Shown: piece after piece, positions 687 to 58,680 of the stretch
Layout: every line of letters starts with the position of its first letter
Numbering within the stretch: position 1 is the stretch's first letter
Source of the DNA: a virus
Lineage: Duplodnaviria > Caudoviricetes
Strand: one strand, 5' to 3'
IMG/VR virus record: IMGVR_UViG_3300000271_000007
Location: 1-61,380 of that record
DNA: 61,380 nucleotides
Translations under genes and position numbers: made by a program
The notes under the pieces: model-generated
The model's database searches: none
What the model saw: only the letters and a program-made list of their open reading frames with translations
Told to the model about the DNA's origin: nothing

Positions 687-1919
687 TCAGGCCAGCGTCA
701 GGTTTGCCACCCGGGTGACGCCATCGGTGCCGCGCACGCTCACGCGCAGGTTGGTGTTGGTGGTGAGGCTGAACACCATCGTCTGGTTCACGGTGAGGCT
801 CGGCGCGGCGGTGTTGGCCTTCCAGATGGCGTTCTGGTTGGAGTCCAGGCGCAGCGCCTCGCGCAGCACGCCGGCGGCGGTGTTGCCGTTGGCAGCCGTC
901 GGCGCGGTGTGGAAGGTCAGCGTCATCCCGCCGCCTTCGTCGGCGCTGTATGTCTCCGCTGCCTCGGCGGCGATGACGGCGCCGAACTTCGGATTGGTGG
1001 TGGTGAACTGGCCGTCCGTCGAGCCGAACTTGATGGCCGGCATGTACTTGTTGGTGGTGTTCGAGTCTGCGGCCACGAGCTCCAAGCCCGCATTGGTCTG
1101 CGTCAGGTCGGGGTTGCCGACGCTGGTGCTCTGCAGGCGCAGCTTGGCGTCGGTCCCGCTGGCTTGAACGTGCAGCCGAGCCTGCGGCGCAACCCCCATG
1201 CCCACGTCGCCCGACGCATCCATCTGCAGGCCGGTGACGCCGCCCACCAGGAACGAATGCCCGGTCACGGTCGTGCCGCTGCGCGTGATGACGTAGGCGT
1301 TTGCGGGGGTGTCGTTCGCGTCGTTGGTGGTTCCGAGGGCGAACGACCCGCCGCTGACTGATGCACGCCACTTGCGGTTGTCCCCTGCGGCGTCAGACTC
1401 GTCCAGCATCAGCGCCGGGTTGGTGCTCGTGATGTGCAGGGCGTTCAGCGGCGTCGTCGTGCCGATGCCCAGCCCGGTCGTGGTCAGGCGCAGGCGGTCG
1501 GCGCCGGCCAGCGCCACGCCGATGCTGTTGGTGCCGGGTCGGTAGAAGCCGGTGTCCAGGTCGGCAGCGAATCGGACCCCAGGGGTGGAAACGTTTCCAT
1601 CTCCGAACTGCCCTTCGCCCGCGCCGTCGCGCACCGCGGCGAAGTCGTTGATGAGGGTCTGCGCTGCCGTGGCCAGGGTCTGCACGATGCCCTGCGTGGG
1701 CACGATCTTGTAGGGCTCGCCCGAGTCGCTGGCGCTGGCGTAGGGCTCGGCCAGGGTCAGCTGCGTGTTGGAATCCACGCTCAGGATCTCGTAGGTGAAG
1801 CGGTCGGGGCCGATGAAGCCGTGCCCGGCCTTGACGTTCGCCACCCAGGAGGTGCCCGAGCCGGTGACGGTGGGGCTGCCGCTGGTGACGGAAACGGTGC
1901 CGGCCTTGTACCACGCCAT
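687..1919 (-). CDS. Tail fibre protein
   Basis: N-terminus MAWYKAGTVSVTSGSPTVTGSGTSW typical of tail fibres; GIGTTTP/GMGVAP beta repeats; AGGAG RBS. Confidence 0.85.
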   Translation of the reverse strand: MAWYKAGTVSVTSGSPTVTGSGTSWVANVKAGHGFIGPDRFTYEILSVDSNTQLTLAEPYASASDSGEPYKIVPTQGIVQTLATAAQTLINDFAAVRDGAGEGQFGDGNVSTPGVRFAADLDTGFYRPGTNSIGVALAGADRLRLTTTGLGIGTTTPLNALHITSTNPALMLDESDAAGDNRKWRASVSGGSFALGTTNDANDTPANAYVITRSGTTVTGHSFLVGGVTGLQMDASGDVGMGVAPQARLHVQASGTDAKLRLQSTSVGNPDLTQTNAGLELVAADSNTTNKYMPAIKFGSTDGQFTTTNPKFGAVIAAEAAETYSADEGGGMTLTFHTAPTAANGNTAAGVLREALRLDSNQNAIWKANTAAPSLTVNQTMVFSLTTNTNLRVSVRGTDGVTRVANLTLA

Positions 1920-9316: not shown

Positions 9317-11161
9317 TCAGAACATGAAAGGCCGGGTGCGCCCGCCGGCGCGGCTGAAAGACTTGGCCGTGGCCGCGCCCACCGAGTCGATGGCGTCCTG
9401 GTACAGCCGGCCGTGGTACTGCGCGAGGCCCGGGTTCGTCCAGGGCTGGTTCGGCATGGCGAAGATCCGCGACAGCGCGCCGTCCACCAGCGCGTCGGCG
9501 TAGTGCTCCCACAGCGAAGCCAGCACGCCCGTCGCGGCCTGCGAGGGCTTGAGCGCCACGTCCAGCACCAGCAGCTGGCCGGCGTCGGGCGCCGGGCTCA
9601 CGCTGAAGGTCGCGCGCGTCGTCGTCCAGGCCACGTCGGCGCTGCTGTTGCACGCGGCCAGATCCTCGCCGCGCTCGGCCTGCACCACGTGCGCACGCTG
9701 GCCGTCGATCCAGTAGGCCAGCAGCTTCGCCAGTGCGCTCTGCGAGTCGGGCAGCGGCATGGTGTAGGTCGTCACGTCGGCCAGCGCCGTCACCGGGTTC
9801 AGCTTCTGCCGCCACGCCAGGGTCTTCTGGAAGAAGTCGATGCAGATGCTGCGCAGGTGCGTCACCACGGACTGGTCCGGGCAGCCGGGCACGTAGGGCA
9901 GCACCTCGTAGATCAGCGACTGGAAGGTCAGGTACTCCAGCGGCACCGTCACCGTCAGCGTGGCCGGCGAACTGGTAACGTTTCCAGCGCCGTTGGTCAC
10001 GGTCACGCTGAAGTCGGTGCCGTTGTCCTCGATGCCGGGGGTGAAGGTGTAACTGTCCGAGGTCGCGCCGGCGATGGCCGCGCCGTTGCGCAGCCACTGG
10101 TAGACCAGCGGCGACGTGCCGGCCGCTACCACGCTGAAGGTCACGGGGCTGCCCACCAGCGACGACTGCGGCGCGGGCTGCGTCGTGATGCTCGGGGCCA
10201 CCGCCAGGGCCGTGACGGTCAGCACCGCGGCGTTGGTCGTGACGCTGCCGGCGCTGTTGCTGGCCGTGCAGGTGAAGACCGCGCCGCTGTCGCCCAGCAC
10301 TGTCGTCAGGCTGTAGGTCAGGCCCGTGGCGCCGCTGATGGCCACGCCGTTGCGGAACCACTGCCGCGTCGGCGTCGGCGTGCCGCTGAAGGCTGCGGTG
10401 AAGGTGGCGAGCGCGCCAGCGGCCACGCTCACGTTCGCGGGCTGCGTGGTGACGGTCGGGGCGATGCCCAGCAGCGTGACGCTGGTGCTCAGGGGGGCGC
10501 TGAAGTTGCCCGCGGCGTCGCGCGCGCGCATTTCCAGGCTGTCGGTGCTGGCCGGCGTGCGGCCGGCGAAGTTCGCCACCCGGCCGCCGCTTGCGATGTC
10601 GGTCCACGCGCCGCTGCCGCCCAGACGCCACTGGTAGCCGGTCACGCCCACGGCGTCGCTGGCCGGCGGGCAGGTGGCGGTGTAGCTGGTCGAGGTCAGC
10701 GCCGAGATGGCGATGCTGCCGGTCAGGCTCGGGCTGGTGACGTCGGTGGCGCCGATCACCGCACCGCCGGTGACGCTGTTGTCGGTGAAGACCGCGGCGC
10801 CGACGGTCCAGGCGCTGTCGGCTTGGCCCGTGCGCTTGGCCCGCACGCGCGGGGTGTACTGCGTGACGACGGTGAGGCCGGTGGCCGCGAAGGACGCGAC
10901 ACCTGCGCCGGTCGGGTTGGTGGCGCCTGCCGCTGCGACCCACGTGCCGCTGCCGGTGGGGTTCTCCAGTTGCACGTCGAAGCCGGTGGGCACACTGCCG
11001 CCGGCGCCGGGCACCCACTCGATCAGCAGCGTGGTCCCGCCCGTGGCCGATGCACTGACGGACGCGGGCGCCGACGCGGGGCTGTCGGGCGTCTCGACGT
11101 CAGGCAGCGCCCAGGCAGCAGCGCCGCCGCCGGCATCGGTCAGGAACCACTCGGCGGCCAT
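9317..11161 (-). CDS. FN3/Ig-domain protein fused to a C-terminal head-tail adaptor-like domain
   Basis: FN3 motifs (DAVGVTGY, RARDAAGNFS), two Ig repeats (PxITTQP...YQW..NG..I.GAT), C-terminal VLPYVPGCPD...GALSRIFAMPNQPWTNP. Confidence 0.75.
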   Translation of the reverse strand: MAAEWFLTDAGGGAAAWALPDVETPDSPASAPASVSASATGGTTLLIEWVPGAGGSVPTGFDVQLENPTGSGTWVAAAGATNPTGAGVASFAATGLTVVTQYTPRVRAKRTGQADSAWTVGAAVFTDNSVTGGAVIGATDVTSPSLTGSIAISALTSTSYTATCPPASDAVGVTGYQWRLGGSGAWTDIASGGRVANFAGRTPASTDSLEMRARDAAGNFSAPLSTSVTLLGIAPTVTTQPANVSVAAGALATFTAAFSGTPTPTRQWFRNGVAISGATGLTYSLTTVLGDSGAVFTCTASNSAGSVTTNAAVLTVTALAVAPSITTQPAPQSSLVGSPVTFSVVAAGTSPLVYQWLRNGAAIAGATSDSYTFTPGIEDNGTDFSVTVTNGAGNVTSSPATLTVTVPLEYLTFQSLIYEVLPYVPGCPDQSVVTHLRSICIDFFQKTLAWRQKLNPVTALADVTTYTMPLPDSQSALAKLLAYWIDGQRAHVVQAERGEDLAACNSSADVAWTTTRATFSVSPAPDAGQLLVLDVALKPSQAATGVLASLWEHYADALVDGALSRIFAMPNQPWTNPGLAQYHGRLYQDAIDSVGAATAKSFSRAGGRTRPFMF

Positions 11162-16949: not shown

Positions 16950-17279
16950 TTACAGGCTCTCGATGACGCTGTGGACCATCAGCACGCAGTTGGCCTTGAG
17001 CCGGTCCACGGACAGTTCGGCCGCGTCGCGCTTGCTCACGCCCACCTGCAGCGCGTACTGGCGCAGTTCGTCCTCGCCCATCAGCTGGATGTTTCGGTGC
17101 CGCTGCAGCGGGTCGCGCGAAGGCGTCGCAGCCGCAGCAGCCACCATCGGCGGCAGTGCGGGCGGCGCGCCCGGAATGGAAACGCTTCCACTTGCCGGGC
17201 TGGCCTCGGCTTGCTGCGCGCGCTTGGCGCCGGCCTTCGGGCCGGGCTTGCGCCGCGCGACGGGCTGCGCGGCGGCCAT
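16950..17279 (-). CDS. Hypothetical protein
   Basis: MAAAQPVARRK start coupled to upstream stop. Confidence 0.6.
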   Translation of the reverse strand: MAAAQPVARRKPGPKAGAKRAQQAEASPASGSVSIPGAPPALPPMVAAAAATPSRDPLQRHRNIQLMGEDELRQYALQVGVSKRDAAELSVDRLKANCVLMVHSVIESL

Positions 17280-19828: not shown

Positions 19829-20808
19829 CAGTGGATGCCCAGGTTGTCGGTGGTGCGCATGAGCTTGGCCACCTGGTTGGCCGGCAGGCCCGCCAGGAAC
19901 CGCTCGGCGTCCTCGCCTTCGAGGTTGCTGAACTGCGCCATGAGGTCGTCGTTCACCACGGCCGGCGCAGCGTTCGGCAGGCCACCGATGCTGGGCGGCG
20001 CGGCGCGCGGCGCGGGGGCGGCAGGCGCAGCCGGTGCAGCAGCAGCGGGAGCCGGCGCGGGAGTGGCAGCGATGCCACGCAGCGCCAGCACGGCCTTGTG
20101 CGCCTTCTCGACTAGCTGCGCGGGCGTCAGGCTGGCGTTGGCCGGGCTCGCCTTGGCGGCAGCGAACAGGCTGTCGAACTCAACCGCTGCGGCCTTGTCG
20201 GTGCCGTAGTCCACCTGCCCTGCCTTCTTCGCAGCAGCAGCCACCGCCGCCATCGCGGCGAGCTCGGCCTTCTCCTGCGCCTCGGCAGCGCGGCGCGCGT
20301 TCTGCTCGTTCACCTCGCGCAGCGTGTCGGCGCGGGTCTGCTCGGCCAGCAGCGTGGCCATCTTGTCGTCCACCGCTTCCACCGCAGAGTGGTAGTCGTC
20401 GTCGGACAGTTCGCCGTCGCTCCACTTCTTCGCCAGGTCGCGCTTCTCGGTGCGCAGCGTGTCGCGCTGGGCCTTGAAGTCGGTGGCGGGCACGTCGAAG
20501 GCAGCCGGCGGCGCTGGCGGTGCTGCGGCCGTGTCCAGTTCCTCCAGCGCGGCGCTGGCGGCCTCGGGCGTCACTGCGTCGGAGGCAGGCTGCGCGGGGG
20601 CGGCTTCGGTGGAAGCAGCGGCTTCCGGGGTGGAAACGTTTCCAGCGTCCGCTTCCGTTTCCACTTCCTCGGTCGTACCGGCGGCGCCAGCGCTCGCGGC
20701 CGGCTTCTGCTCGGCCATCGTCGCCAGCGCCGTCTCGGCGCCGGTGTCTTGCAGGGCCGCGGCTTCCTCGGGGGTCAGCAGGGCCAGTTCTTCGGGGGAG
20801 AGCTTCAT
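19828..20808 (-). CDS. Capsid scaffolding protein
   Basis: Acidic, Ala/Pro-rich and helical; lies between portal and capsid. Confidence 0.7.
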   Translation of the reverse strand: MKLSPEELALLTPEEAAALQDTGAETALATMAEQKPAASAGAAGTTEEVETEADAGNVSTPEAAASTEAAPAQPASDAVTPEAASAALEELDTAAAPPAPPAAFDVPATDFKAQRDTLRTEKRDLAKKWSDGELSDDDYHSAVEAVDDKMATLLAEQTRADTLREVNEQNARRAAEAQEKAELAAMAAVAAAAKKAGQVDYGTDKAAAVEFDSLFAAAKASPANASLTPAQLVEKAHKAVLALRGIAATPAPAPAAAAPAAPAAPAPRAAPPSIGGLPNAAPAVVNDDLMAQFSNLEGEDAERFLAGLPANQVAKLMRTTDNLGIH

Positions 20809-23972: not shown

Positions 23973-23995
23973 GATGTTGGTGGAAGCGTTTCCAG

Positions 23996-25492: not shown

Positions 25493-26165
25493 TGGCTTCC
25501 TCTGCGCTTGGCAGCGCGCCGGCCAGGCGCAGCAGTTCCAGCGCGCGACTGGTCAGGTCGGCGTCGGGCACGTTGTTCATGGTGACGTTCTGCGTCACGT
25601 CCAGCTTGTCGCCGTAGGTGCGCGGCTTCAGCTTCGCGGCGATCCACTTCCGGGCATCGACCCGCAGCCGGTTGCGCTGGATGGCGGCCGAGTCCAGCGC
25701 CAGGGTGACGTTTTCACCGTCGTGCGTCGCGGCCACTGTCGCCTCGTCGCTGATGGCCACCATCTCGTCGGCCAGCTTGTCGGCGCGGTCTTCGCGTGCG
25801 CGCGCGTAGAGCACCGTGCGGCCCGGGTCCGCATTGATCCATCGCTGCATCGATGTGTAGCTGAACCCTCGTTCCCGGCAGAACTCGGCCAGGTGCCCGC
25901 CTGCCGTGATGTGGTCGCAGAACTCGCTCAGGGCGGCCTCGGCGTCTTGCGTCCAGGCCTGTAGCGGAGTCAGTGCGGGGGTGTTGGGCTGTGTCGTTGC
26001 GGGAGGCTTCTTGCCCTTGGAAGTGGAAACGCTTCCAGCCTTCCCGGCCTTGTCGCCCTTCCCCGCCTTGCTGGCGGGCGTCCTCTTGGCTGCGGGCTTG
26101 CGCGGCTTGGTAGGCTTCTTGGCGTCAGGCTGTGCCGGCGTGGGCACACTCTTGCGTGCGGGCAT
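25479..26165 (-). CDS. terS: Terminase small subunit
   Basis: YARAREDRADKLADE...RLRVDARKWIAAKLKPRTYGDK. Confidence 0.9.
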   Translation of the reverse strand: MPARKSVPTPAQPDAKKPTKPRKPAAKRTPASKAGKGDKAGKAGSVSTSKGKKPPATTQPNTPALTPLQAWTQDAEAALSEFCDHITAGGHLAEFCRERGFSYTSMQRWINADPGRTVLYARAREDRADKLADEMVAISDEATVAATHDGENVTLALDSAAIQRNRLRVDARKWIAAKLKPRTYGDKLDVTQNVTMNNVPDADLTSRALELLRLAGALPSAEEANGRG

Positions 26166-26292: not shown

Positions 26293-26361
26293 AGGGGTGG
26301 AAGTGGCGGTTGGGGTGGAAACGTTTCCACTTGGCCTGTTCTCATGCCGCAGCCCTGACGA

Positions 26362-34246: not shown

Positions 34247-35400
34247 GCTGCACCCCGGTCGGCCAGGGCGTAGAACCGCGTCCACCACTCCGCGCCCACC
34301 TTGGGCTGGCTCGGGAAGCGGCAGGCGCGGGCTTCTGCGGCCAGGGCCTGCAGTTGGTTCGGGAGGGTCCACTGCCCATAGGGAATGCCGTTCGGGTGCT
34401 CGTTGGTCAGCACCGTGACGACGTACTGCGTGGACTCGGTGGCCGGCGTTTCCGGATAGGCAGCGGGCTTGCTGGCAACATCCACGCACAGGCCTTGGTT
34501 CACGTCATCCTGCATCGCCATCCCGGTGTCCGGGGCCTCGCCGCCCATTTCCTCCACCGTGGCAGCCGGGGCTGCGTCGGGTTCGTCGGGGACGATGGGG
34601 TCGGAGTCGGTCGGCCTGGAAACGCTTCCACCATCCAACACCTCGCCGGTGGCGGTGTCTACCACATCGCCGGCCGGGGTCGTGATCGTGGCAGCGCGCG
34701 CTGCGGCCAGTTCCGCCTGCAGCCGCTCGTTCTCGGCCTTCAGGCGCGCGGCTTCCACCGCGTCGGCGTGCAGCTGGCGCAACTGCACCAGCGCCTCGCC
34801 CTTCGCGTCCTCGGCCTGCTGGCGGTACTCCTGCCACTCGTCGCCGAACGACAGGCCTTCCACGAAGGCGATGGCAGCGGCGATGCGCTCGGCCGGCAGG
34901 CCGGTGGCCTGGCGGATGTAGCCGTAGATGCGCGCCACGCCCGCGGCCAGCTTGTCCTTGCGCTGGTCCTCAGCGCGCTGCGCTTCCTGCTTCTTGCGCA
35001 GCGCCTCGGCCTCGTGGTCGTCGCGGATCTTGACCAGGCGCGACTCGGTGGGCCCCAGGAACTTGATGATCTCGGCTTCCTCGGCGCCGATGGCCTTGCT
35101 GACCTTGGCGAGCTCGGCCTTGGATGCCTTGCTCACGTTCTGCGCGGCGTAGCGCGGCGCGCGCACGTCGGCGATGGCGGCGGCCAGTTCCTTGGCGCCC
35201 TTCGTGGTGCTCGGGTCGAACACCACTTCGCGGTAACGCTCCACCAGCGCCTGGGCCTGGGGCTTCCAGTCACCGAAGCGCGCCAGCGCCACGGCCTGCA
35301 GGTCGATGGTGGCCAGCGTCGCGCGCTGCGACACTTCGGGCGGCGGCGCCGGCGGCAGCGCGGCGTCGTCCAGGATGGGGAAGTCGAGTACGGCGTTCAT
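34243..35400 (-). CDS. Coiled-coil protein of the recombination module
   Basis: Follows exonuclease; helical; GAGGA RBS. Confidence 0.7.
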   Translation of the reverse strand: MNAVLDFPILDDAALPPAPPPEVSQRATLATIDLQAVALARFGDWKPQAQALVERYREVVFDPSTTKGAKELAAAIADVRAPRYAAQNVSKASKAELAKVSKAIGAEEAEIIKFLGPTESRLVKIRDDHEAEALRKKQEAQRAEDQRKDKLAAGVARIYGYIRQATGLPAERIAAAIAFVEGLSFGDEWQEYRQQAEDAKGEALVQLRQLHADAVEAARLKAENERLQAELAAARAATITTPAGDVVDTATGEVLDGGSVSRPTDSDPIVPDEPDAAPAATVEEMGGEAPDTGMAMQDDVNQGLCVDVASKPAAYPETPATESTQYVVTVLTNEHPNGIPYGQWTLPNQLQALAAEARACRFPSQPKVGAEWWTRFYALADRGAA

Positions 35401-38341: not shown

Positions 38342-38526
38342 GCCGCGTCTCCAGCGGCCCGGCAAGTGGAAGCGCTTCCACTGTCGGCCTTGGTTTCGAT
38401 CGCCACTGGCACGTAGTGCGCCAAGGCTTGGGCCTGTTTCGCGCGGCGCCGCGCCTTGATCGTGTGAACGATCTCTTGCAGGCTCGCCACCACTTCGGGT
38501 GGCGCGGGATGGGCGTGCAGGGTCAC
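38338..38526 (-). CDS. First gene of leftward early operon
   Basis: GGAG RBS downstream of PL-like promoter. Confidence 0.5.
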   Translation of the reverse strand: MTLHAHPAPPEVVASLQEIVHTIKARRRAKQAQALAHYVPVAIETKADSGSASTCRAAGDAA

Positions 38527-38565
38527 TTGCGTCTCCCACCCTGAAACGATCAGGGCATGGGACGC

Positions 38566-39147: not shown

Positions 39148-39167
39148 GGTCTTCTCCCTGGTGAAAA

Positions 39168-39791: not shown

Positions 39792-39796
39792 TTGCG

Positions 39797-39868: not shown

Positions 39869-39874
39869 GGCCGC

Positions 39875-40515: not shown

Positions 40516-40517
40516 GA

Positions 40518-40805: not shown

Positions 40806-41127
40806 GCCCTGGTCCGACCGCGAGATCGCGCGGTTCACCTTCCGCCACGCGCTGTTCCAGCGCCGGGGCATGACCGAGCCGCAGGCCGAGGCACTGGCCG
40901 AGCGGCTGGTGCTGCGCGACCGCGACCGCGACGACCGCCGCTGCTGCGCCGAGTGCTCGAACCTGCAAGACGACGGCGGCTGCTTCCAGGCCCGCCGCAT
41001 GAACACCGCACGCCGTCGGGCAGCGGACACGGGCGAAGACCCGCCCGTTCGTCACGCGCTCGACCCCATCGACCCCATGCCGGCCGTGCTCCAGCGCTGC
41101 CGCACCTTCTCATTCAGCACACCATGA
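40798..41127 (+). CDS. Hypothetical protein
   Basis: GTG after AAGGAG; RDRDRDDRRCCAEC. Confidence 0.6.
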   Translation: MHEPWSDREIARFTFRHALFQRRGMTEPQAEALAERLVLRDRDRDDRRCCAECSNLQDDGGCFQARRMNTARRRAADTGEDPPVRHALDPIDPMPAVLQRCRTFSFSTP

Positions 41128-42014
41128 AGCTCCCCATCAGCGCCATCCGCCTCGACGGCGGCACACAACCCCGCACCAGCATCAACGAGGCCGTGGTGTC
41201 GGAGTACGCCGAGGCCATGCTGGCCGGCCAAGTGCTGCCGGCACCGGTGGTGTTCTTCGACGGCAGCGCCTACTGGCTCGCCGACGGCTTCCACCGCGTC
41301 CACGCAGCGCGGCAGGCTGGCATGGTGGACATGGGCTTCGACATGCGCACCGGCACCAAGCGCGAGGCCATCCAGTTCAGCCTGGGCGCCAACGCCACCC
41401 ACGGGCTGCGCCGCAGCAACGAGGACAAGCGCCGCGCCGTGCGCATGGCGCTGGACGATCCCGAGTGGGCCGCGCTGCCGAACCGCGAGATCGCGCGCAT
41501 GACCGGCACCACGCACCCGTTCGTGGCCGACATGCGTGAAGCGATGAAGCCGGCACCGAAGCCCGAAGGTGGAAACGTTTCCAGCCAGGACGCGCCGCGT
41601 CGCGAGGACAACACCAAGAGCACCCCGCCGCCGGCACCGCGCGCCGACCAGCAGCCTGGAAACGTTTCCACTTCCAAGCCGGGCAAGGTGGAAGCGGAAC
41701 CGGAAGCCAGCGACGGCCCGACCCTGGCCGAGATCGCCGACGAACAGCAGCGCGAGATCGAGCGGCTGCAAGGCGAGATCAGCGCCATGCAGGCCGACGA
41801 CCAGAAGGCCGAAGCGCTCAAGCTGCGCCGGCTGGCCGACAACGCCCAGCGTCAGCAAAGCGAGGCGATGGAGAAGGCGCGCCGCGCCGAAGACCGCGAG
41901 GCGTTCACGAAGCGCCAGCTGATGCGCTGCGGCAAGGCCGTCGGCGTCACCGACCCGGACCAGATCGCCCCGGCCGTGGAAGCGCTGGCGCGGCGCGTGA
42001 AGGTGGCGGCATGA
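41124..42014 (+). CDS. ParB/Srx N-terminal domain protein with HTH and coiled coil
   Basis: QPR...LADGFHRVHA ParB motif; NATHGLRRS; HTH NREIARMTGTTHPFV. Confidence 0.85.
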   Translation: MKLPISAIRLDGGTQPRTSINEAVVSEYAEAMLAGQVLPAPVVFFDGSAYWLADGFHRVHAARQAGMVDMGFDMRTGTKREAIQFSLGANATHGLRRSNEDKRRAVRMALDDPEWAALPNREIARMTGTTHPFVADMREAMKPAPKPEGGNVSSQDAPRREDNTKSTPPPAPRADQQPGNVSTSKPGKVEAEPEASDGPTLAEIADEQQREIERLQGEISAMQADDQKAEALKLRRLADNAQRQQSEAMEKARRAEDREAFTKRQLMRCGKAVGVTDPDQIAPAVEALARRVKVAA

Positions 42015-42322
42015 AGGCGCTGGAGCACTTGGAGACGGCGCTGGAGAACTTCGCGCCGAAGCCGCTGCGCGCGTCGGAACTGCACGAGATCGTCGGCAAG
42101 TGGAAGGCACGCAAGGCCATCCAGCTGGCGCTGCACGGCGGCACCGCGTTCTGCATGCGGGCGGAAGGCCACGGGTCGGAGAAGTTGTACTTCCGCTACC
42201 AGGCCGACATGGAAGCGTTCGCCGCGGCGCTGCCGAAGCCTGAGCCCAAGGGCACGGCCAGCGGCTGGCATCTGGCCCAGCAGCAGCAGCGGCATGGCAA
42301 CGCGGTGCGGGGTGTGGCGTGA
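42011..42322 (+). CDS. Hypothetical protein
   Basis: Coupled on both sides. Confidence 0.55.
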   Translation: MKALEHLETALENFAPKPLRASELHEIVGKWKARKAIQLALHGGTAFCMRAEGHGSEKLYFRYQADMEAFAAALPKPEPKGTASGWHLAQQQQRHGNAVRGVA

Positions 42323-43803
42323 GGGTCCAACTGCGCGAGGACTACCAAGTCCCGGCCGTGGACCGGGCGCGCGAGGCCATCCGCAACGGTGCGCGCAGCA
42401 TCCTCATCAACGCCCCGACGGGCAGCGGCAAGACCGTGATGGCCAGCGCGCTGATGGAACTCATCAGCGAGAAGGGCAAGCGAGCCAACTTCGTGGTGGA
42501 CCGCCTGAGCCTCATCGGGCAGACCAGCGACACCTTCGACCGCTACGGGCTGGAGCACGGCGTCATCCAGTCGCAGCACCCGCGCTACCGGCCCAGCCTG
42601 CCGATCCAGGTGTGCAGCGTGCAGACCCTGGCGCGCCGCGGCTGGCCGGAAGCGGACGTTGACCTCATCGACGAGGCCCACGTGCTGCACGAGACGGTGA
42701 AGAAGCGCATCGAGTCCAAGAGCGGCATCGTGATCGGCCTGACCGCCACGCCGTTCACGCGCGGGCTGGGCAAGTACTTCGACGTGGTGGTGAACGTCAC
42801 GACCACGCGGTGGCTGATCGACAACGGCTGGCTGGCGCCTTACCGCGTCTTCAGCTGCGCCGAGCCCGACATGAGCGAGGTGGCCGTCAAGAGCACCGGC
42901 GAGTGGGACGAGAAGCAGGCCAGCGGCAAGGCGCTCGAAGTGGTGGGCGACGTGGTGGCCGAGTACCTGAAGCACGGGGACGGTCGCAAGTTCATCTGCT
43001 CTGGCGTGGACACCGCGCACGTGGAAGAACTGCAGCGGCAGTTCCTGGCCGCCGGCATCAACGTGGCCAGCTACACCTACAAGGACCGCGAGGAAGACCG
43101 CGCCGACACCACGCTGGAATTCCGTAAGCCCAACAGCACCATTCGCGGGCTCGTCACGGTCACGGCCGCGTCGCGCGGGTTCGACGTGCCCGACGTGTCG
43201 TGCGTCATCATGGCCCGGCCGCTGCGCAAGAGCCTGGCCGAGCACATCCAGCTGCTCGGCCGTGGCCTGCGCATCGCCGAAGGCAAGACCGACTGCCTGG
43301 TGCTCGACCACAGCGGCAACATGGCGCGGTTCTGGCAGGAGTGCGAAGGGTTCTTCGACTTCGGCATCGAGGCGCTGGACGACGGCAAGACCAAGCCCAA
43401 GAAGCCGGCCGAGAAGAAGGAAGCCGAGCCGATGAAGTGCCCGCAGTGCCGCACGCTGCACAAGCCTGCGCCTGCCTGCCCATCCTGCGGCCACGAGTAC
43501 CCCCGTAAGGCGGCCATCGCCCACGTGCCCGGCACGCTGAAGGAACTCATCGCCGGCGGCCACCACAAGGAACTGACCCGCGACCTCTGGCCGCAGGTAG
43601 CCGGTTACGTGTTGGAGCGCCGCGAGGGCGAGGCAGCGCGCAAGCAGGCGCTGGCGATCTACAAGGACATCACCGGCGGCTGGCCGAAAGTGACCTGGGA
43701 AGCCACCAAGCCGGTGGAGCCGAGCAACGAAGTCCGCAACAAGATCCGCGCGCAGCAGATCCGGTTCGCCAAGCGGCGCGAGCGTTCGGCGGTGGCGGCA
43801 TGA
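42319..43803 (+). CDS. SF2 DEAH helicase with zinc ribbon
   Basis: APTGSGKT, IDEAH, GLTATP, GFDVP, QLLGRGLR. Confidence 0.95.
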   Translation: MRVQLREDYQVPAVDRAREAIRNGARSILINAPTGSGKTVMASALMELISEKGKRANFVVDRLSLIGQTSDTFDRYGLEHGVIQSQHPRYRPSLPIQVCSVQTLARRGWPEADVDLIDEAHVLHETVKKRIESKSGIVIGLTATPFTRGLGKYFDVVVNVTTTRWLIDNGWLAPYRVFSCAEPDMSEVAVKSTGEWDEKQASGKALEVVGDVVAEYLKHGDGRKFICSGVDTAHVEELQRQFLAAGINVASYTYKDREEDRADTTLEFRKPNSTIRGLVTVTAASRGFDVPDVSCVIMARPLRKSLAEHIQLLGRGLRIAEGKTDCLVLDHSGNMARFWQECEGFFDFGIEALDDGKTKPKKPAEKKEAEPMKCPQCRTLHKPAPACPSCGHEYPRKAAIAHVPGTLKELIAGGHHKELTRDLWPQVAGYVLERREGEAARKQALAIYKDITGGWPKVTWEATKPVEPSNEVRNKIRAQQIRFAKRRERSAVAA

Positions 43804-44825
43804 GCATCCGCATCATCCAAGGCGACTGCCGCGACGTGCTCAAGACGCTGCCCGAAGCGTCGGTGCATTGCTGCGTGACCAGCCCGCCCTACTTTGGCCT
43901 GCGCGACTACGGCCACGCTGGACAGATTGGGCTTGAGCAGACGCCGGCCGAGTACGTCGAGCAGATGGTGCAGGTGTTCCGCGAGGTGCGGCGCGTTCTG
44001 GCCGACGACGGCACCCTGTGGCTGAACCTTGGGGACAGCTATGCCAACGATGGCAAGTGGGGTGGTAGCACCAGTGGCAAGCACGTCGATGCCCTGCACG
44101 GTGACACTGGCGCCGGCCGTGGCAAGCGCACCACTGGACTGAAGGCAAAAGACCTGATCGGCATTCCCTGGCGCGTTGCCTTCTCCCTTCAGGCTGACGG
44201 CTGGTATCTGCGCCAGGACATCATCTGGCACAAGCCGAACCCGATGCCCGAGAGCGTGCGCGACCGCTGCACCAAGGCGCATGAGTACGTGTTCCTGCTG
44301 TCGAAGTCGGAGCGGTACTACTACGACAGTGAGGCGATGCGCGAGCCGGCAGTCGCGGCTGACATCGGCGCGATGGACGGCGGCGCGCAGCGTCTGCCGG
44401 ACGGCTCCGACGCGAACGCGGGTCGCAACTTCCGCAGCAAGCGCGACAGTTTCAAGCGCGACGACAGCAAGCGCGCGGAGGTGATTCCCGGCCAGTCTGT
44501 CGGCACGCACCGGGCTCAGCGGGAGGAGAGCGCATACGACACGCTCACCCGCAACAAGCGCAGCGTCTGGACCATCGCTACCAAGCCGTTTGCCGAAGCC
44601 CACTTCGCCACGATGGCGCCTGAACTGGCCGAGACGTGCATCAAAGCCGGCTGTCCGGAAGGCGGCACGGTGCTAGACCCATTCGGCGGCGCTGGCACTA
44701 CAGGTCTTGTCGCAGATCGACTCCAGCGCAGCGCCGTGCTGTGCGAACTGAACCCGGAATACATCGCCATCGCGCGCCGCCGGATCGCCAGCGATGCCCC
44801 GCTGTTCGCGGAGATCGAACTATGA
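43800..44825 (+). CDS. DNA methyltransferase (N4-C/N6-A, beta class)
   Basis: TSPPY catalytic motif; VLDPFGGAGTT SAM motif. Confidence 0.95.
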   Translation: MSIRIIQGDCRDVLKTLPEASVHCCVTSPPYFGLRDYGHAGQIGLEQTPAEYVEQMVQVFREVRRVLADDGTLWLNLGDSYANDGKWGGSTSGKHVDALHGDTGAGRGKRTTGLKAKDLIGIPWRVAFSLQADGWYLRQDIIWHKPNPMPESVRDRCTKAHEYVFLLSKSERYYYDSEAMREPAVAADIGAMDGGAQRLPDGSDANAGRNFRSKRDSFKRDDSKRAEVIPGQSVGTHRAQREESAYDTLTRNKRSVWTIATKPFAEAHFATMAPELAETCIKAGCPEGGTVLDPFGGAGTTGLVADRLQRSAVLCELNPEYIAIARRRIASDAPLFAEIEL

Positions 44826-45727
44826 CCTTCGACCAAGCCCTGCGCCTGGCAGGCATGCGCCCACGCGACATCGTGGCCGATGGCAAGTGGCGCCGGTGCG
44901 CGACGGACGACAAGCCGACGAAGCGCAACGGGGCCTACTGCCTGAGCATCGAAGGCACGCGCGGCTGGTGGCGGAATTGGGCGCTGGACTCCGAGCTCAA
45001 CACCTGGGCCGACGACCAAGCGACCACGGCCAAGCCCATCGACCAGCGCAAGCTGGACGCCCAGCGCGCGGCCGAGCGCGAGCGCCGCATCCACGCCATG
45101 CGCGGCGCGCGGGCCTACTGGAATCGTTGCCACCCGCTGAACCGGCTGCACCCCTACCTGGAAGCCAAGGGCCTGAGTGCCGTCGGCACGGCCGGGCTGC
45201 GCAGCATCGACGGGCTGCTGGTGATCCCGGTCTGCTACGGCGACTCGATCATCAGCACGCAGAGCATCCACCCCGACGGCACCAAGCGGTTCTATGCCGG
45301 CGCGCCGGTCAAGGGCGGGTGCTTCGTGCTCGACCGCAAGGGTGCGGCAGTTACGGTGCTGGTGGAAGGGCTGGCCACGGGGCTGGCGGTGTTCCAGGCC
45401 ATGCGCATGGCGCGCGTGGTGGTGGCGTTCGACGCGGGCAACCTGCTCCCCGTGGTGGACCGGCTGCGGCCTACGGGCAGCGTCGTTTTCATGGCTGACA
45501 ACGACCACCGGACCATGAGCCGACGAGGCTTTAACCCGGGGATCGACAAAGCGAAGAACGCCGCAGAGCTGGTCGGTGCAGGTGTTGCCTGGATCGAAGG
45601 CATTGACGGCACTGATGCAGCCGACGCGCTCAAGGAATGGGGCGTTGGCGCCCACAAGCGCATTGAACGAATCGTGCTCGCCGGCGCGCGCTACGTGCCC
45701 AGCACGGCACGCGAGGCCCCTGCATGA
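44822..45727 (+). CDS. Toprim-domain primase
   Basis: VEGLATG, VAFDAGNL, ADND. Confidence 0.88.
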   Translation: MTFDQALRLAGMRPRDIVADGKWRRCATDDKPTKRNGAYCLSIEGTRGWWRNWALDSELNTWADDQATTAKPIDQRKLDAQRAAERERRIHAMRGARAYWNRCHPLNRLHPYLEAKGLSAVGTAGLRSIDGLLVIPVCYGDSIISTQSIHPDGTKRFYAGAPVKGGCFVLDRKGAAVTVLVEGLATGLAVFQAMRMARVVVAFDAGNLLPVVDRLRPTGSVVFMADNDHRTMSRRGFNPGIDKAKNAAELVGAGVAWIEGIDGTDAADALKEWGVGAHKRIERIVLAGARYVPSTAREAPA

Positions 45728-46004
45728 CCTCAAGCACCGTGCGCGCCGCGGAAACGTTACCGCCCTGCATGGGGCCGAGCGCAGGAAACACCGGGGGTAG
45801 CAGCCGCCCCGTCAACAAGCTGCACCGGACGAGGCCCCTGCGGGCCGGGGTGCAACTCCCTCAACGATTCCGGCGGCTGGCGTCGATCCCACGGCCGGGG
45901 GTGAAGCAAGGGCTTCACTGGTGGGAATCCCGCAAGGGGGTGGCGTCCTCGTCTTTCTGCCCCGTGGGGGTAGGGGGGCGTTTGGGTGGAGACAGGAGGA
46001 AGTG

Positions 46005-50200: not shown

Positions 50201-50227
50201 GCGGGTTGCGACTGCGGAGTGGAAGCG

Positions 50228-50347
50228 TTACCGCTTCAGCCCCCACAGCAGCACGCCGAAGTGTCCCACAGCCACCAGCAGCCCCGGCCAGCCGAACGTG
50301 AGCACCACGGCCACGTAGCCGGCGACGATCAGTCCGGCGCCGATCAC
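50228..50347 (-). CDS. Small membrane protein (39 aa)
   Basis: GTGA overlap with giant gene stop; hydrophobic. Confidence 0.45.
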   Translation of the reverse strand: MIGAGLIVAGYVAVVLTFGWPGLLVAVGHFGVLLWGLKR

Positions 50348-56300: not shown

Positions 56301-58680
56301 CAGCATTCAAAGCCTCAGGCCCTTGCTCTGCAAGCGCAGGGGTTAGTTGCTCTGCTGCTCCTGCAACTCCTGCCGGCGCTGGCGCTTGCTCTGCCGGGGC
56401 TTCGGGCTCGGTTCGCGGTGCTGGTGCATTCTTCCCCTTCGCTGCCACGATGCGGTCGTTGATCTGCGTCGCCAGCACCGTGTCGCCGCGCTGCACGGCG
56501 TCGCTCCAGGCCTTCTTGAGCGTGGGCACGTCGGCGTCGGCAGGCGGGGCGGCGGGCGCTTCCGGCTCGGCCGGGGTGGAAACGTTTCCACCTGCCGGCG
56601 CGGCGGCGGTCGTTTCCACCGGCTCGGCGGCCGGCCCCGTCACTGCATCGGCAGGTGCGGGATCGTCTCCGGGTCGAACTCCATCAGCATCGCCGCCTGC
56701 CGCAGCGCGGTCCACAGCGGCTGGGGCATCGCCAGCATCTGCTGCGGGGTCGCTGCGCTGTTCAGCCATGCCGCGATCTCCAGGTACTGCGGCTCCGTCA
56801 AGAGCCCCAGGCTGTGCATCTGCGTCAGCTTGTCCATCGGTGATGAATCCCTGCGTCGGTCGCACCACGTAGCCGCCGTCCACCGGCACAACTTCGTGCG
56901 TTTCTGCGCCTGCGATGTTGCGAGCACGGGTAGCGCGCGTCTTACTCAAGAAGGCCCGACCGTTGGTTTCCAAGATCAGCCCCTGCTCAGGCTGATATTG
57001 CTTGGCGGCTCGCTCCAGCCGGGCGCTTGGGTCTTCCTGTTCCGCCGGCAGAAGCCTTGCCAGAACATCGGCATCAGTGATCCGGCCCGCTTCATAGTCT
57101 CGGACGTAAGCGCGAGCGGCCATCGTATTGGTGCGCCGCAGGCCGTCGATGAACTGAGCCACGGCATTGGGGGCTGCAGCATCAACCTGCACGGGATCAA
57201 CCATGCGCGTGCGCGGCGCACGACTGACGGGCTCGTCTTTGATAAGCTGAATCCGCGATTGACGATCGCGCTCGACTTGATATGCCGCTTCGCCTTGCTC
57301 CAGGTAGCCGGCGAGCACGGGTGAAGCCACCCATGCCTGCGGCACCACGGTGTAGCCGCTTCCATCAGGGAGCGGCAGAACCGACATGGGATTGCCTGTG
57401 CGCTCCTGCGCCATGCCTGCCAGTTGTTGCGCCTGCTCAGGCGGCATGGGGCGCGGAGAGCGCGCAATCCACTGTTCAATGTTCTGCAGTGCAGCACGTT
57501 CAGAAAGGACTGCCGCGGCTTCTTCGGCCGTGGCGGCACTCCCGTCTTGGAACACATAAAGCGGAGCCTGTCCGGAGAACCCGCCTTCAGGCTCGTAACG
57601 CTGGTTCCATTCCAGCGCAGGCGGCAGCGGCTCTCCCGCGTCGGCCTTCTTCGCCGCCGCTTCCACTGCCGCGTTCACGGCGCGGCTCATCGGCCCCACC
57701 TCGGGCAGCTTGTCCGCGCGCAGTTGGTCGCCGGGGCGCATGGCCGGGCGCGGGATGCCCAGCGCGCCACCCATTGCAGCGCCGGCCAAGGCTTCCATCG
57801 TGCCGCTGGCCACCACGCCAGCCATCGGGTCCACGTCGAAGCCTTCGTTGGCGAGTGCGGTGTTGGTGGCGAACTTCTCCTGCCCGCCTTGTAGCGCCTC
57901 GGGCACGCCTTCGGCCGCAGCACCGATGCCCACGCGGCGCGCGATGCCCGGGGCGGCCTGCGTCGTGCCGCGCACCAGGCGGTCGGCCGCGGCCTCGATG
58001 CCCGACCGGCCAGCCCATGCACCCAGCCCGGCGCCCAGCGCGATCTGCCCGGCGTTGGGGCCGCCGTAGGCCTGCGCCTGTGCGGCCAGCGCCTGCGCTT
58101 CCTCGGGGGTCTTGCCCGCGGCCAGCTGCGCCTGCAGCACCTCGTCGTAGATGCTCGACTTCACCGCGCCAGCGCCCTGCCCTGCACCGATGCCGAGTGC
58201 CGCACCCATGCGGCCAGCCACGGCAGCCGGGCCGGCGCCGGGGATCAGCGCGGTGGCCACGGTCGGGATCGACGTGCCGACGGCCTGCGCCAGCGTCTGC
58301 ACCGGGGCCACGCCGAAAGCGCGGAAGCCGGCCACGACTTGATCCAGCAGCCCCTTGCCCTCGGCGTCGCGCAGGATCTGCGCCATCGTGCGCTCGTCGG
58401 CCTGCGCCTCGGCGCTCTTGAGGCTGGAGATGTAGTCCTCCACGCTGCGCAGCCCACCGGACACGGCGTTGTCCGCGCCGGCGAGGTCGGTCAGCATGCG
58501 CACGCCCTGCACGGCACCACGGCCGAACGACAGGCCGGTGTCGGCCACGGCGCGCGCCATGCCGCGAGGCTCGGCCGGGGCAGCGACTTGCGCCGCTTGC
58601 GCGGACAAGGCGGCCATCGCCGCGTCGAAGTCAATCGGCTCTTGCGGTTGCGCGATGTAAGTCGGCTTGCGGGTGGCCAT
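50344..58680 (-). CDS. Giant polyvalent internal virion protein (PLxRFG type) with 2H phosphoesterase, DUF3560-like and HExxH domains
   Basis: YAPLMRFG ~52240; FHEAFH ~53490; HVTVAYS and PHVTLTY ~54780-55215; Gly/Ala hydrophobic N-terminus. Confidence 0.85.
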   Translation of the reverse strand: MATRKPTYIAQPQEPIDFDAAMAALSAQAAQVAAPAEPRGMARAVADTGLSFGRGAVQGVRMLTDLAGADNAVSGGLRSVEDYISSLKSAEAQADERTMAQILRDAEGKGLLDQVVAGFRAFGVAPVQTLAQAVGTSIPTVATALIPGAGPAAVAGRMGAALGIGAGQGAGAVKSSIYDEVLQAQLAAGKTPEEAQALAAQAQAYGGPNAGQIALGAGLGAWAGRSGIEAAADRLVRGTTQAAPGIARRVGIGAAAEGVPEALQGGQEKFATNTALANEGFDVDPMAGVVASGTMEALAGAAMGGALGIPRPAMRPGDQLRADKLPEVGPMSRAVNAAVEAAAKKADAGEPLPPALEWNQRYEPEGGFSGQAPLYVFQDGSAATAEEAAAVLSERAALQNIEQWIARSPRPMPPEQAQQLAGMAQERTGNPMSVLPLPDGSGYTVVPQAWVASPVLAGYLEQGEAAYQVERDRQSRIQLIKDEPVSRAPRTRMVDPVQVDAAAPNAVAQFIDGLRRTNTMAARAYVRDYEAGRITDADVLARLLPAEQEDPSARLERAAKQYQPEQGLILETNGRAFLSKTRATRARNIAGAETHEVVPVDGGYVVRPTQGFITDGQADADAQPGALDGAAVPGDRGMAEQRSDPAADAGDAPAAVDRAAAGGDADGVRPGDDPAPADAVTGPAAEPVETTAAAPAGGNVSTPAEPEAPAAPPADADVPTLKKAWSDAVQRGDTVLATQINDRIVAAKGKNAPAPRTEPEAPAEQAPAPAGVAGAAEQLTPALAEQGPEALNADAISSKSTRNKLPADAELLGRITRAQPAGNKLLGSLDAETKSLVLSGVGRLVKNREIFKRIVELVPVEVMNVLAGNRIKADGRADYEAVLKNLAAVELEGSVPVLVDASDTFVRVAASVAAEQVAMPGGAGGLPLARDAAVGAREGDGISAAPSVLASRVAEGIPGRVSVDVRVGPQDGGRAIGTLDSTQVNSPTRVDELGSSSDATNDDPPTVSNTSMANPEKPAARRKRLQAEKGTAKRTLQEQVERPAAPDAVVATAGDPDAKGERKFYVTMVRGDRVARLAGPFDTKEEAEAMKPRAQDEANKADPRSAFDAFGVSGITSESHKPGTLNERLGISAPAAAVAEREAAPAPAAEQEPTPLYASRPLTPASAEAIRAWAATQGFKTTLPAADMHVTVAYSREPVDGALVPADDAPLTVRSGKRSVEPLGDQGAVVLKLESPELQARWREYRKAGASWDYESYTPHVTLTYDGAGVDLAKVKPYAGPIELAGETQEPLNVDKADDYKAAGEDATPQPAAEEAAAPAEAAPATGIAPMPGIPGLSMSLAQSAHRGTSFSPERRGEQEVAGYREALRDAWDRAARVAGKDEAAIARITEVFEDVAAGYNARYAASLGAKSQIVSTMIAGGSNFPVRRMEKRNATARKRAEEASEYLERGIKRLLRAARGPIDNSPESELERVRLNLTQREELQEQMKAANAALRKGDDAALEDLGFTAEQIAELKKPDFAGRTGFPAYRLSNNNAEIARLRERLKSAEERMAAAQAGPVEQEYNGVRMVEDATDDRLRLYFDGKPSDAVREDLKAAAFKWSPKNEAWQRQLTPAAKYAAKQVLDKHFPASQDDTGNVAMLKRGSTAAGSLDLDSARALAAQMAERGMVRLNVVQSVADMPARQRDKVLALDPAGQVRGAYFRQGDSIWMVADNIRGADEFVRIAFHEAFHRGLARTIPEAKAVLREMWRTNQNLRAATAAQMKAHGIGQDEAIEEALAVMAEAGTVRDLKGWGKLMETIRSWVAGFAKALGLEMTWTDDMVLDFVAALTGRGLQGGVHVNTGQGTAAAPAPDAEPAADGPMLARTANALRDTIPEGVQQWMTDRTTSQRGFNRVWHRTVGTQLHKAKINKDFGRVYYAVQDFMKDVSRIATLAADKAPDMLPQIESLGDLARLAPTLASPAAYKQRKADIQAASAALFDGTLRYTRDEEGKAVKVEPDSDELGGIVWTDAELRERGLSDRAVKMYRQSRQAIDQSLENMLAADLYRQASVLPPEMLATTPGELDALLAGMRRAAASENPWQAYTLMRNAIKDRLAELETALDGQPNQHTPDLMARRQELRKLQTSIADKAQRIADLQDAGYAPLMRFGPYAVDAVNADGRRVFFGMYESQAAANKAARNFRGDGLQVTQSIMPQKDFEALQGVSPETALLFAEMLGVEKNEAMQKWLQNAVAEQSALKRHIRRKGIEGFDEDGGRVLAAFVTSNARAASRALHAARMADAVENVQQGDVKDEARALVEYVNNPKEEAQALRGLLFVQYIGGSIASAMVNLTQTLVQTLPYLSQYGGAIKAGARLSSAMKTALADKIADPALAKAVARAEKDGVIKPQEVFQLQAEASRSLGSNLYARSLLAAWGSMFQLAEQFNRRTAFIAAYETARQQGMADPFAFAENAVDETQSVFNKGNRPSWSRGAVGATLFTFKTFTIQYLEFLKRLATAGEPGSPERAQGRKAAALALLTLVMLSGMKGLPFADDADDLIDTVAQGLGYNWTTDAQRDKWLDALLGETFSDLVQHGFSGMPGVPFDVSQRLGMANLLPGTGLLKTSESNKQNQVLEVFGVAGSAVRDATQGQFLPVAIRNLMQGLDIYETGLYRDRRGRNVTEADMVDAVLKGIGLQPSNVARAQREIGRQIQQRSLYQAVKEELTDAMAQARFDGDDDALRNAQQALARWNDSNPEARIIILPQTIRQRLRQMRMSKAERTVANTPRPLRAQTAEALQ
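55732..56346 (+). CDS. HNH endonuclease with zinc fingers and C-terminal HTH, nested antisense in the giant gene
   Basis: Two CxxC...FCxxxC fingers; EHRLIV...DVHHLDGNKLNNALENL...H; GGAG RBS at 55721; lower GC. Confidence 0.9.
   Translation: MRTVQCTYCSAPVLRTNSDVNRYPSGNSFCNTACQYAWRGRNSVTFTCTNCGVTGKRKPARTTGHRNLFCGYACRDTYKRVGSINKDGYRSFKLNGRQVLEHRLIVGSAIGFDAIAGKDVHHLDGNKLNNALENLAVLDKSAHAREHQTLSFCIETAKQLVASGLSARDAAKQLGVSRELVASAFARYGISIQSLRPLLCKRRG
56640..56837 (-). CDS. Probable overprinted 65-aa gene in an alternate frame of the giant gene
   Basis: MDKLTQMHSLGLLTEPQYLEIAAWL...; GC-rich third positions in this frame while the host frame is low-complexity. Confidence 0.55.
   Translation of the reverse strand: MDKLTQMHSLGLLTEPQYLEIAAWLNSAATPQQMLAMPQPLWTALRQAAMLMEFDPETIPHLPMQ

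Follow-up and report, generated by a model that had tools for sequence, protein, structure and literature searches.

Proteins of the ParB fold are now regarded as nucleotide-gated DNA clamps, and the few roles known for them beyond partition (KorB, Noc, VirB) were each found by genetics. Noc covers the Bacillus chromosome genome-wide by means of many dispersed 14-bp palindromes. KorB of plasmid RK2 with its OB sites shows, in the available part of its description (PMC11790492), an N-terminal domain and a helix-turn-helix, several dispersed palindromes on one mobile replicon and an action on the whole replicon. Here we describe a comparable arrangement in a phage genome of 61,380 bp (IMG/VR record IMGVR_UViG_3300000271_000007; G000; 68.6% GC), which was analyzed over its full length and is called the window in the following. 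The window, for which a codon-statistics caller gave 73 genes, encodes a ParB-like protein (P0001) and, like the replicon of KorB, carries dispersed palindromic sites for which this protein is the candidate reader, 12 at up to two mismatches across all of its modules. The pairing was predicted from sequence alone, and with it came natural specificity variants and genomes with up to 23 exact sites. As the best explanation, to which we assign a probability of roughly 0.6, the palindromes are the cognate sites of this orphan ParB-like protein, which acts genome-wide in the manner of KorB or Noc.

The palindrome TGGAAACGTTTCCA, perfect over its 14 bases, occurs in six exact copies in the window, 0.01 being expected, and none of 100 dinucleotide shuffles reached this number. 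Up to two mismatches gave 13 matches (0.04 expected) and up to three gave 15 (0.64 expected; shuffle maximum 3). In an order-3 Markov model TGGAAACGTTTCCA and its sub-words ranked first in over-representation among the words of 8, 10, 12 and 14 bases in the window, and all six occurrences of AAACGTTT fell within the 14-base palindrome. The extended consensus was GTGGAAACGTTTCCAC with the half-site TGGAAAC. Enrichment over shuffled sequences had been set as a check by the first-pass annotation, which had proposed the network, and was confirmed; all coordinates that it had listed were correct (six exact copies, five with one mismatch and a symmetric two-mismatch copy at 38367; Table 1). The matches at 45749, 50220 and 45119, the last of which was missing from its list, could be chance matches.

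Nine copies lie in called genes, and all nine are read in the frame T-GGA-AAC-GTT-TCC-A (G-N/S-V-S/T). The open reading frame (ORF) harboring a tenth copy (GSAS) was not called; its codon-position GC appears more coding-like than that of the alternative frame. The codons concerned are rare in the window, GGA accounting for 4.5% of Gly, GTT for 6.2% of Val and TCC for 12.4% of Ser. Furthermore, all GNVS (5/5), GSVS (3/3) and GNVT (1/1) peptides in called genes are written by the palindrome, while the lone GSVT is not; the chance of a GNVS peptide being encoded by the palindrome codons is 3.2e-4 at the codon usage of the window. Since all of these peptides are encoded by the palindrome in rare codons, they are by-products of the DNA word. 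Thus, the GNVS-type peptide exists owing to the DNA word and not vice versa, which corroborates the earlier assumption that one frame in ten gene copies and atypical GGA and GTT codons reflect selection on the DNA. Tolerance is the best explanation for the use of one frame only; W-K-R-F or x-E-T-F-P would result from the other two. The copies had also been placed usually in disordered linkers. This applied to the ParB-like protein, in which residue 178 is situated inside a segment of pLDDT <50 (152-196) and residue 149 at its edge, while for the other genes we saw only flanking peptides rich in G, P, S, T and A.

P0001 matched PHROG 1033 ('ParB-like partition protein') over residues 1-138 (E 6.5e-17) and, by phmmer, ParB entries of the PDB (7o0n, E 2.8e-5; 7bnk, E 3.9e-5; M. 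xanthus ParB ranging from E 2.8e-5 to 1.9e-4), while residues 2-142 could be aligned to T. thermophilus Spo0J (1vz0). An AF2 model based on a 15-row alignment (mean pLDDT 84.9) revealed a ParB/Srx-type N-terminal domain with helix-turn-helix (residues 1-141), whose helices 99-141 directly follow the N-terminal domain at pLDDT >90, the disordered linker mentioned above and a long C-terminal helix (201-273; pLDDT 87-96), which may correspond to a dimerization domain. The top Foldseek matches were ParB-CDP (6sdk), MxParB (7bnk), CcParB-parS (6t1f), Noc (7nfu) and KorB (8qa9), all with probability 1.00; KorB 8qa8 was matched as well, and the alignments with the ParB, Noc and KorB chains, in which the DNA-binding domain is included, were 137-152 columns long. 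Judged by these profile matches and the model, P0001 is a ParB-like protein with a predicted ParB/Srx N-terminal fold and helix-turn-helix, as the first-pass annotation had supposed for this gene product. No match to P0001 was found in NCBIfam or in the PADLOC defence library. A profile made from its family found 25,178 cluster representatives in public data at E 1e-3 or better. The possibility that P0001 is the partner of a thymine dioxygenase was rejected, as it possesses a domain for DNA binding and the 73 window proteins, when searched, gave no match to an enzyme family of this type.

In IMG/VR the exact 14-mer was present in at least 117 stretches, several contigs having three to six copies inside the stretch returned. 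Rich in the motif were six records of 53% GC (G002, 59,960 bp with terminal repeats, 23 exact copies; G004, 59,720 bp, 23; G003, 58,353 bp, 20; G001, 25 kb, 12; G008, 60 kb, 11; G005, 37 kb, 6) and one of 40% GC (G009, 58 kb, two exact copies and three of the symmetric form TGGTAACGTTACCA). All seven encode a homologue of P0001 (261-292 amino acids), the base rate of which was 7 of 50,697 INPHARED records (tblastn). Two of them, G008 and G009, had been picked as negative controls on account of a single listed motif copy and proved to be motif-rich with a homologue. No P0001 homologue was found in G006 and G007 (16-18% complete, single listed copy), and three-copy fragments without homologue were pieces of the 53% GC group (G019/L107, L125, L123) or belonged to the group of G009 (G018). 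When the 73 window proteins were compared with the seven records by tblastn, the ParB-like protein (31-40% identity) and a helicase (23-36%) were common to all and ERF to six of them; DUF5131, a methylase, a primase and an HNH protein gave isolated matches in single records. G002 is a different kind of phage from the window, its virion module comprising a tail-tube protein and a lambda-type portal, beside a beta-clamp, a Mom-like protein and a sigma-70 region-4 protein (59 of 88 called genes scanned). Thus, co-occurrence of motif and ParB-like gene across phages, the second check set beforehand, held in 7/7 motif-rich records, and the same protein-site pairing in otherwise unrelated phages suggests a DNA system of phages that extends over the whole genome and has not been described.

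Close relatives of the window phage were not found in INPHARED (megablast, blastn), where only short portal and terminase matches of 66-69% and a methylase fragment were obtained; nearest by nucleotide sequence were Pseudomonas phage Itty13, Burkholderia phage BcepIL02 and Ralstonia podophages. The five structural relatives checked (Itty13, BcepIL02, Gerry, Skulduggery, RPZH6), which come from Burkholderia, Ralstonia and Pseudomonas hosts, harbored no palindrome at up to two mismatches and were absent from the tblastn matches of P0001. These data bear on the question whether the palindrome is the operator of a host LacI-family regulator, borrowed by the phage. The generic LacI-family operator pattern is TGnAAnCGnTTnCA. 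By inspection the palindrome fits this pattern, GAAACGTTTC turns up in excerpts of papers on Cra/FruR operators, and motif pairs exist in bacterial contigs without ParB-like homologue, e.g. Halobacillus. Apart from the lack of copies in the structural relatives, however, the motif network spans phages so different in GC (40%, 53% and 69%) that a common host regulator is unlikely, and always occurs together with the ParB-like gene. Copies within this very gene, and other palindromes going with other helix-turn-helix sequences (see below), likewise speak against a borrowed operator, which we regard as very unlikely.

Two of the six exact sites of the window are located in the 891-bp ParB-like gene (0.09 expected). 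Copies following the helix-turn-helix region were also detected in the homologues of G001-G005 and G008 (one each), G009 (one, TAAC form), G011 (two of a 15-bp form with one extra central base) and G017 (two, plus two of the 15-bp form). The 16-mer was also looked for in bacterial contigs, where most matches were single and presumably due to chance; in addition, three homologues came to light that carry copies in their gene and share the helix-turn-helix signature described below (L272, two copies; L214 from a cyanobacterial metagenome-assembled genome (MAG), one; L183 from a Rhodopirellula MAG, four). The in-gene copies encode GNVS in the window and xETFP (VETFP) elsewhere. Since the codon frame differs between lineages, it is the DNA word and not the peptide that is conserved.

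To what extent helix-turn-helix and palindrome vary together had been set as a further check. In homologues found by protein similarity alone, the motif of the window was present in 0/5 IMG/VR records (G010-G014) and 0/5 INPHARED phages; searches with peptide patterns of P0001 disclosed homologues at 36-52% identity, the 12-mer core being present at 0/9 loci. MW202545.1 (L165) contains a homologue of about 40% identity and the same order of ParB-like, helicase and primase genes, and the window motif was not found in it. Instead, its first 50 kb harbor eight exact copies of the 17-bp palindrome TACTAGTCWGACTAGTA, 0.001 being expected; two of them lie 27 bp apart in the ParB-like gene and two adjoin the end of the large-terminase gene. 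For this homologue a specificity for TACTAGTC would be expected. At residue 151 of the ParB-like gene, and as the only copy found, G010 has TTGTAAC-G-GTTACAA and L002 has TTGCCAC-C-GTGGCAA. In G011, G015 and G017 the TGGAAAC half-sites are the same, but their center is longer by one base. An Arg ahead of helix 2 together with a recognition helix beginning with [ST]H (the region of Arg121/His131 in P0001) was present in 12/12 aligned homologues from genomes with TGGAAAC half-sites, while 9/9 aligned homologues without the half-site miss one or both of these positions; MW202545 has Y and Q, and G010 has N for Arg. The expected co-variation was thus observed, as a different helix-turn-helix goes with a different palindrome at the same spot (MW202545.1, G010, L002). 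No in-gene palindrome was found in CHOED, MQM1 and MW202898, and no over-represented palindrome in the 30.8 kb of MT835519.1 examined. G013 (93% complete, homologue present) showed no dispersed network, only two long palindromes of another sequence and one half-site. In the same genome TTTCCCCTTGCTCG is repeated four times between 17660 and 18428, at intervals of about 250 bp and on one strand; every copy is preceded by 'cat', possibly a start codon of the complementary strand.

Supported by motif-gene co-occurrence, by the copies inside the gene and by the different palindromes accompanying different helix-turn-helix sequences, the palindrome very probably pairs with the ParB-like protein, so that this part of the first-pass annotation stood. 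We infer direct binding, dimer formation, nucleotide-gated sliding and a biological output in the following way. A dimer of P0001 would read two TGGAAAC half-sites through its helix-turn-helix, the one to four copies in its own gene may be primary or autoregulatory sites, and the copies across every module would extend its action to the entire genome. The N-terminal domains might then close in a nucleotide-dependent manner and release the clamp from the site onto the flanking DNA, where it would regulate or organize phage DNA without partitioning it. Of these steps a clamp or spreading mechanism can only be put forward tentatively. As to the output, control of transcription or DNA organization is a candidate that falls short of an even chance, recruitment of the helicase or a role in replication appears somewhat unlikely, and the remainder falls to protection or other functions.

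Several observations weigh against this explanation. P0001 had no Pfam match at 1e-3, ParB_N (PF02195) remaining under the cut-off with E 0.091. Of the cytidine triphosphate (CTP) boxes, QPR is retained (in the homologue alignment Q15 does not vary and R17 hardly does), but GERRxRA (GERRWRA) reads GFHRVHA and ENLQR reads ANATH. Because these canonical boxes are not conserved, a CTP clamp cannot be assumed for P0001, and 'loading sites', the term used in the first-pass annotation, can be applied only tentatively. Co-occurrence alone does not suffice to single out the ParB-like protein, since the helicase (16/16 genomes) and ERF travel along. Most motif-bearing homologues were found via the motif, which is a sampling bias, and counts overstate the independent cases, as G001, G002 and G004 are near-identical to each other and G012 and G013 likewise. 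In G016, which has the signature and three motif copies, none resides in the ParB-like gene, and the single in-gene copy of G015 has two mismatches. Among the 150 best of the 25,178 family representatives, 66 had the R..H signature; the footprint ETFP/GNVS/WKRF was found in 6/66 of these as compared to 2/84 without signature, in what is a weak protein-only test, and because of this low share the in-gene copy is not universal. Finally, the spacing of the 12 window sites was no more regular than chance (coefficient of variation (CV) 0.78, P 0.31), and the copies are mostly intragenic and away from promoters, so that a classical operator role is not evident.

A function in segregation, which had also been considered, was not borne out. 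The ParA partner of KorB is IncC; in the window no ParA, CbiA or MinD-type family was found among the 73 proteins at E 1e-3. By inspection, P0001 lacks a ParA-activating peptide of the LG[KR]G[LFI] type, as given in the available part of PMC12704722, and opens directly with the N-terminal domain. Furthermore, the window has genes for a tyrosine integrase (48742-49935) and for an excisionase of the AlpA type (48579-48776). Since neither ParA nor its binding peptide was found and integrase and excisionase are present, classical partition by P0001 is unlikely.

The ParB-like gene belongs to an early rightward operon starting at 39875, in which it is followed by a superfamily 2 (SF2) helicase, an N6/N4 methylase and a Toprim-type primase. 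A helicase homologue lies downstream on the same strand in 15/15 relatives, adjacent or within about 600 bp in nine and about 900 bp apart in the 53% GC group. Prediction of a complex between P0001 and the helicase (one alignment each) had a score of 0.00 and gave no verdict, counting neither for nor against an interaction. In the alignment of the ParB-associated helicases, C387 is invariant and C374, C377 and C390 are nearly invariant (CxxC...CxxC); these cysteines look like a possible zinc ribbon and may form a module binding DNA or a partner. The neighboring methyltransferase gene (43800-44825, plus strand) shares 186 nt of 90% identity with Bordetella phage PHB04 and similar stretches (81-86%) with methylases of Burkholderia, Pseudomonas and Shewanella phages. 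Because of this high identity across diverse phages the segment appears to be widely exchanged.

The conserved order of genes, which had not been part of the first-pass annotation, nor had the in-gene sites, invites the view that the ParB-like protein is an origin-binding replication initiator recruiting the adjacent SF2 helicase and the primase, with the in-gene copies as primary origin and the dispersed copies as secondary origins or helicase-loading sites. The gene indeed occupies the position of lambdoid initiators, after cro-like and cII-position genes and before helicase, methylase and primase, and no other initiator candidate was recognized among the 73 window proteins. Many homologues carry one to four sites in the linker-coding part of the gene, which in G010 and L002 hold the sole copy found. 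On the other hand, the in-gene sites have no AT-rich unwinding region beside them (GC 0.63-0.73 in 60-bp windows, 41500-41860), family searches of the 73 window proteins gave no homology of P0001 to known initiators, and 20-23 evenly spread copies far exceed the needs of an origin. Moreover, about 40% of the sites in the 53% GC phages are intergenic and look regulatory. On balance, an initiator is an unlikely reading, albeit the main rival of the explanation given above.

In these 53% GC phages 9-10 of the 20-23 sites are intergenic, though about 87-90% of the genome is coding, many of them just past a stop codon or 26-51 bp ahead of the next start. In G002, G003 and G004 the spacing was more even than random (CV 0.55-0.67 versus about 0.93, P 0.004-0.03; largest gap about 6 kb versus about 10 kb expected; P 0.004-0.04 overall). 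Between G002 and G003, which are about 70% identical, 5 of 11 aligned sites were kept 14/14, and the others were absent, some as small indels, indicating that sites turn over while their number is retained. Two intergenic palindromes of G002 (reverse-complement 7262 and 24975) are part of a longer repeated element, since both are followed by one conserved stretch (AAAATGCT.CCATTT.AAATCAA.GAAAA) with a length of about 40 nt.

Some intergenic copies of G002 stand directly past stop codons and are followed by T-runs, which would suit RNA or DNA hairpins such as terminators. Alternatively, the sites might be read by another phage factor, e.g. a small early-operon protein, an HNH nuclease or the N6/N4 methyltransferase, and small proteins could escape tblastn at this divergence. 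Yet the RNA hairpin of the palindrome is weak and no better than that of shuffled sequence (-7.5 kcal/mol, z -0.8), methyltransferase and HNH genes are not common to most motif-bearing phages, the prevalence of intragenic copies in the window fits poorly, and the co-variation with the helix-turn-helix would be left unexplained. A reader or structure of this kind is very improbable. Scanning 23000-41000 for promoters and terminators revealed no consensus site coinciding with a palindrome. Two near-repeats, AGATAAAGCG(C/A)..ACGCTT, at 38560-38620 overlap a promoter-like site on the minus strand (TTGACA-18-AACAAT) and are likely operators of the CI/Cro type, unrelated to the palindrome; the window encodes a CI-like and a Cro-like protein (Pfam/PHROG). 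The earlier statement that the motif differs from the CI operator agrees with these other repeats in the divergent promoter region.

Table 1. Copies of the palindrome and associated genes in the window, and the other palindrome of MW202545.1
Feature	Coordinates	Strand	Location or remark
Exact palindrome, GNVS	1586..1599		In gene 687-1919 (-)
1-mismatch copy TGGTAACGTTTCCA, GNVT	9973..9986		In gene 9317-11161 (-)
1-mismatch copy, GSVS	17177..17190		In gene 16950-17282 (-)
Exact palindrome, GNVS	20631..20644		In gene 19828-20808 (-)
1-mismatch copy	23981..23994		23-bp gap between large-terminase stop and start of next gene
1-mismatch copy, GSVS at residue 43	26024..26037		In small-terminase gene 25479-26165 (-)
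Exact palindrome, intergenic	26316..26329		About 150 bp upstream of small-terminase start
1-mismatch copy, GSVS	34617..34630		In gene 34243-35400 (-)
Symmetric 2-mismatch copy TGGAAGCGCTTCCA, GSAS	38367..38380		In 62-codon ORF 38526-38339 (-)
Exact palindrome, GNVS at residue 149	41570..41583		In ParB-like gene, N-terminal edge of disordered linker
Exact palindrome, GNVS at residue 178	41657..41670		In ParB-like gene, 87 bp past the first copy
Doubtful 2-mismatch copy	45119		Frame unlike other copies
Doubtful 3-mismatch copy, intergenic	45749..45762		0.64 chance matches expected at <=3 mismatches
Doubtful 3-mismatch copy, intergenic	50220..50233		0.64 chance matches expected at <=3 mismatches
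Exact palindrome	56577..56590		In 2,778-aa gene 50344-58680 (-); 18-bp palindrome including flanks
ParB-like gene (P0001, 296 aa)	41124..42014	+	PHROG 1033, PDB ParB matches, AF2 model, Foldseek; proposed palindrome reader
SF2 helicase (ResIII/Helicase_C)	42319..43803	+	Pfam/PHROG
Toprim-type primase	44822..45727	+	Same early operon; Pfam/PHROG
TACTAGTCWGACTAGTA in MW202545.1 (L165)	66, 10176, 10203, 27597, 34033, 43566, 49119, 49148		

Among the structural and lysis genes of the window, a P22-type portal, a T4-type large terminase, an Sf6-type small terminase, an SU10-type adaptor, a lysozyme and a spanin-like DUF2514 protein were identified, and ERF is accompanied by YqaJ. In the 2,778-aa protein, residues 1155-1298 form a domain of the anti-CBASS phosphodiesterase Acb1 (Pfam E 1e-38), and the C-terminus matches PLxRFG (NCBIfam E 2.5e-145). 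Giant proteins of this kind usually travel in the virion, and this anti-defence domain may be delivered together with the DNA. A DUF5131 protein (30985-31971, minus strand; Pfam E 2.8e-90) matched the PADLOC candidates PDC-M41B and PDC-M30B (E 1e-50 to 1e-52), and a weakly sulfotransferase-like gene adjoins it. At both ends of the record (1-615 and 60059-61378) minus-strand ORFs run out of the sequence; they could be parts of one gene of about 645 aa if the record is circularly permuted and was cut within this gene.

In the literature searched, the exact 14-mer occurred in no paper and the 12-mer in one unrelated poxvirus preprint, and nothing relevant was found on a phage ParB-like protein combined with dispersed palindromes. 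The main-text parts of the ParB-fold survey PMC12704722 and of bioRxiv 10.1101/2025.08.14.668559 do not describe the pairing, while their supplementary lists may include the family. If the pairing holds, it provides a directly testable model of how a phage marks or controls its own whole genome, orthogonal protein-site pairs usable for DNA labelling, and a suggested function for a very common, unnamed phage gene family; rare-codon peptides such as GNVS could then be footprints of DNA sites in phage proteins. A bolder and rather doubtful extension is that orphan proteins with ParB fold and helix-turn-helix, switchable specificity and 5-23 roughly even genome-wide sites, working with the neighboring SF2 helicase, make up a large unrecognized class in phages, i.e. 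a DNA-organizing or replication-licensing machine distinct from partition, classical repression and known origins.

Several described systems share single features with the window. Lambda O with ori and SPP1 G38P with oriL have their binding sites in the linker-coding part of their own gene, upstream of replication genes. The window resembles them by its two sites in the ParB-like gene and by the helicase and primase genes downstream, and it differs by the lack of sequence homology and of an adjoining AT-rich element and by its many extra copies elsewhere. In phage N15, the IR sites of SopB are dispersed in the genome. According to the available part of PMC7205306, SopB with IR1-4 is like P0001 a ParB-family protein encoded by a phage in whose genome several inverted-repeat sites lie apart from each other; N15, however, has SopA, four sites and a plasmid prophage that needs partition, whereas the window phage has an integrase and no ParA, and 12-23 sites were found here. 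The stoperators of Cluster A mycobacteriophages (excerpts of PMC9283540) are alike in that dozens of copies of one short word, many of them within or between genes, extend across a phage genome of about 50-60 kb and are read by one phage protein acting genome-wide. They differ in their asymmetry, their bias in orientation and their reader, an immunity repressor that binds as a monomer, while the word of the window is palindromic, its candidate binder is ParB-like and its separate CI-like repressor has other operator-like repeats. Phage ParB-like activators of thymine dioxygenases, as presented in the available part of bioRxiv 10.1101/2025.08.14.668559, are orphan phage proteins of the ParB fold with partly divergent CTP residues as well; they lack a DNA-binding domain and are paired with 5mYOX, whereas P0001 has a helix-turn-helix, and no dioxygenase family was found among the 73 window proteins. 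As far as described in the accessible part of PMC11790492, the CTP boxes of KorB, which slides along DNA in a CTP-dependent way, are canonical, and its clamp is locked by a partner, KorA; neither such boxes in P0001 nor a KorA-like family among the 73 proteins were seen in the window. The sites of KorB, unrelated in sequence, relate to promoters, whereas those of the window are mostly intragenic with one to four in the ParB-like gene itself. Noc (7nfu, 7ol9), finally, is chromosomal and has a membrane-targeting helix and canonical CTP motifs; P0001, in its phage setting, is like Noc an orphan ParB-family protein without ParA.

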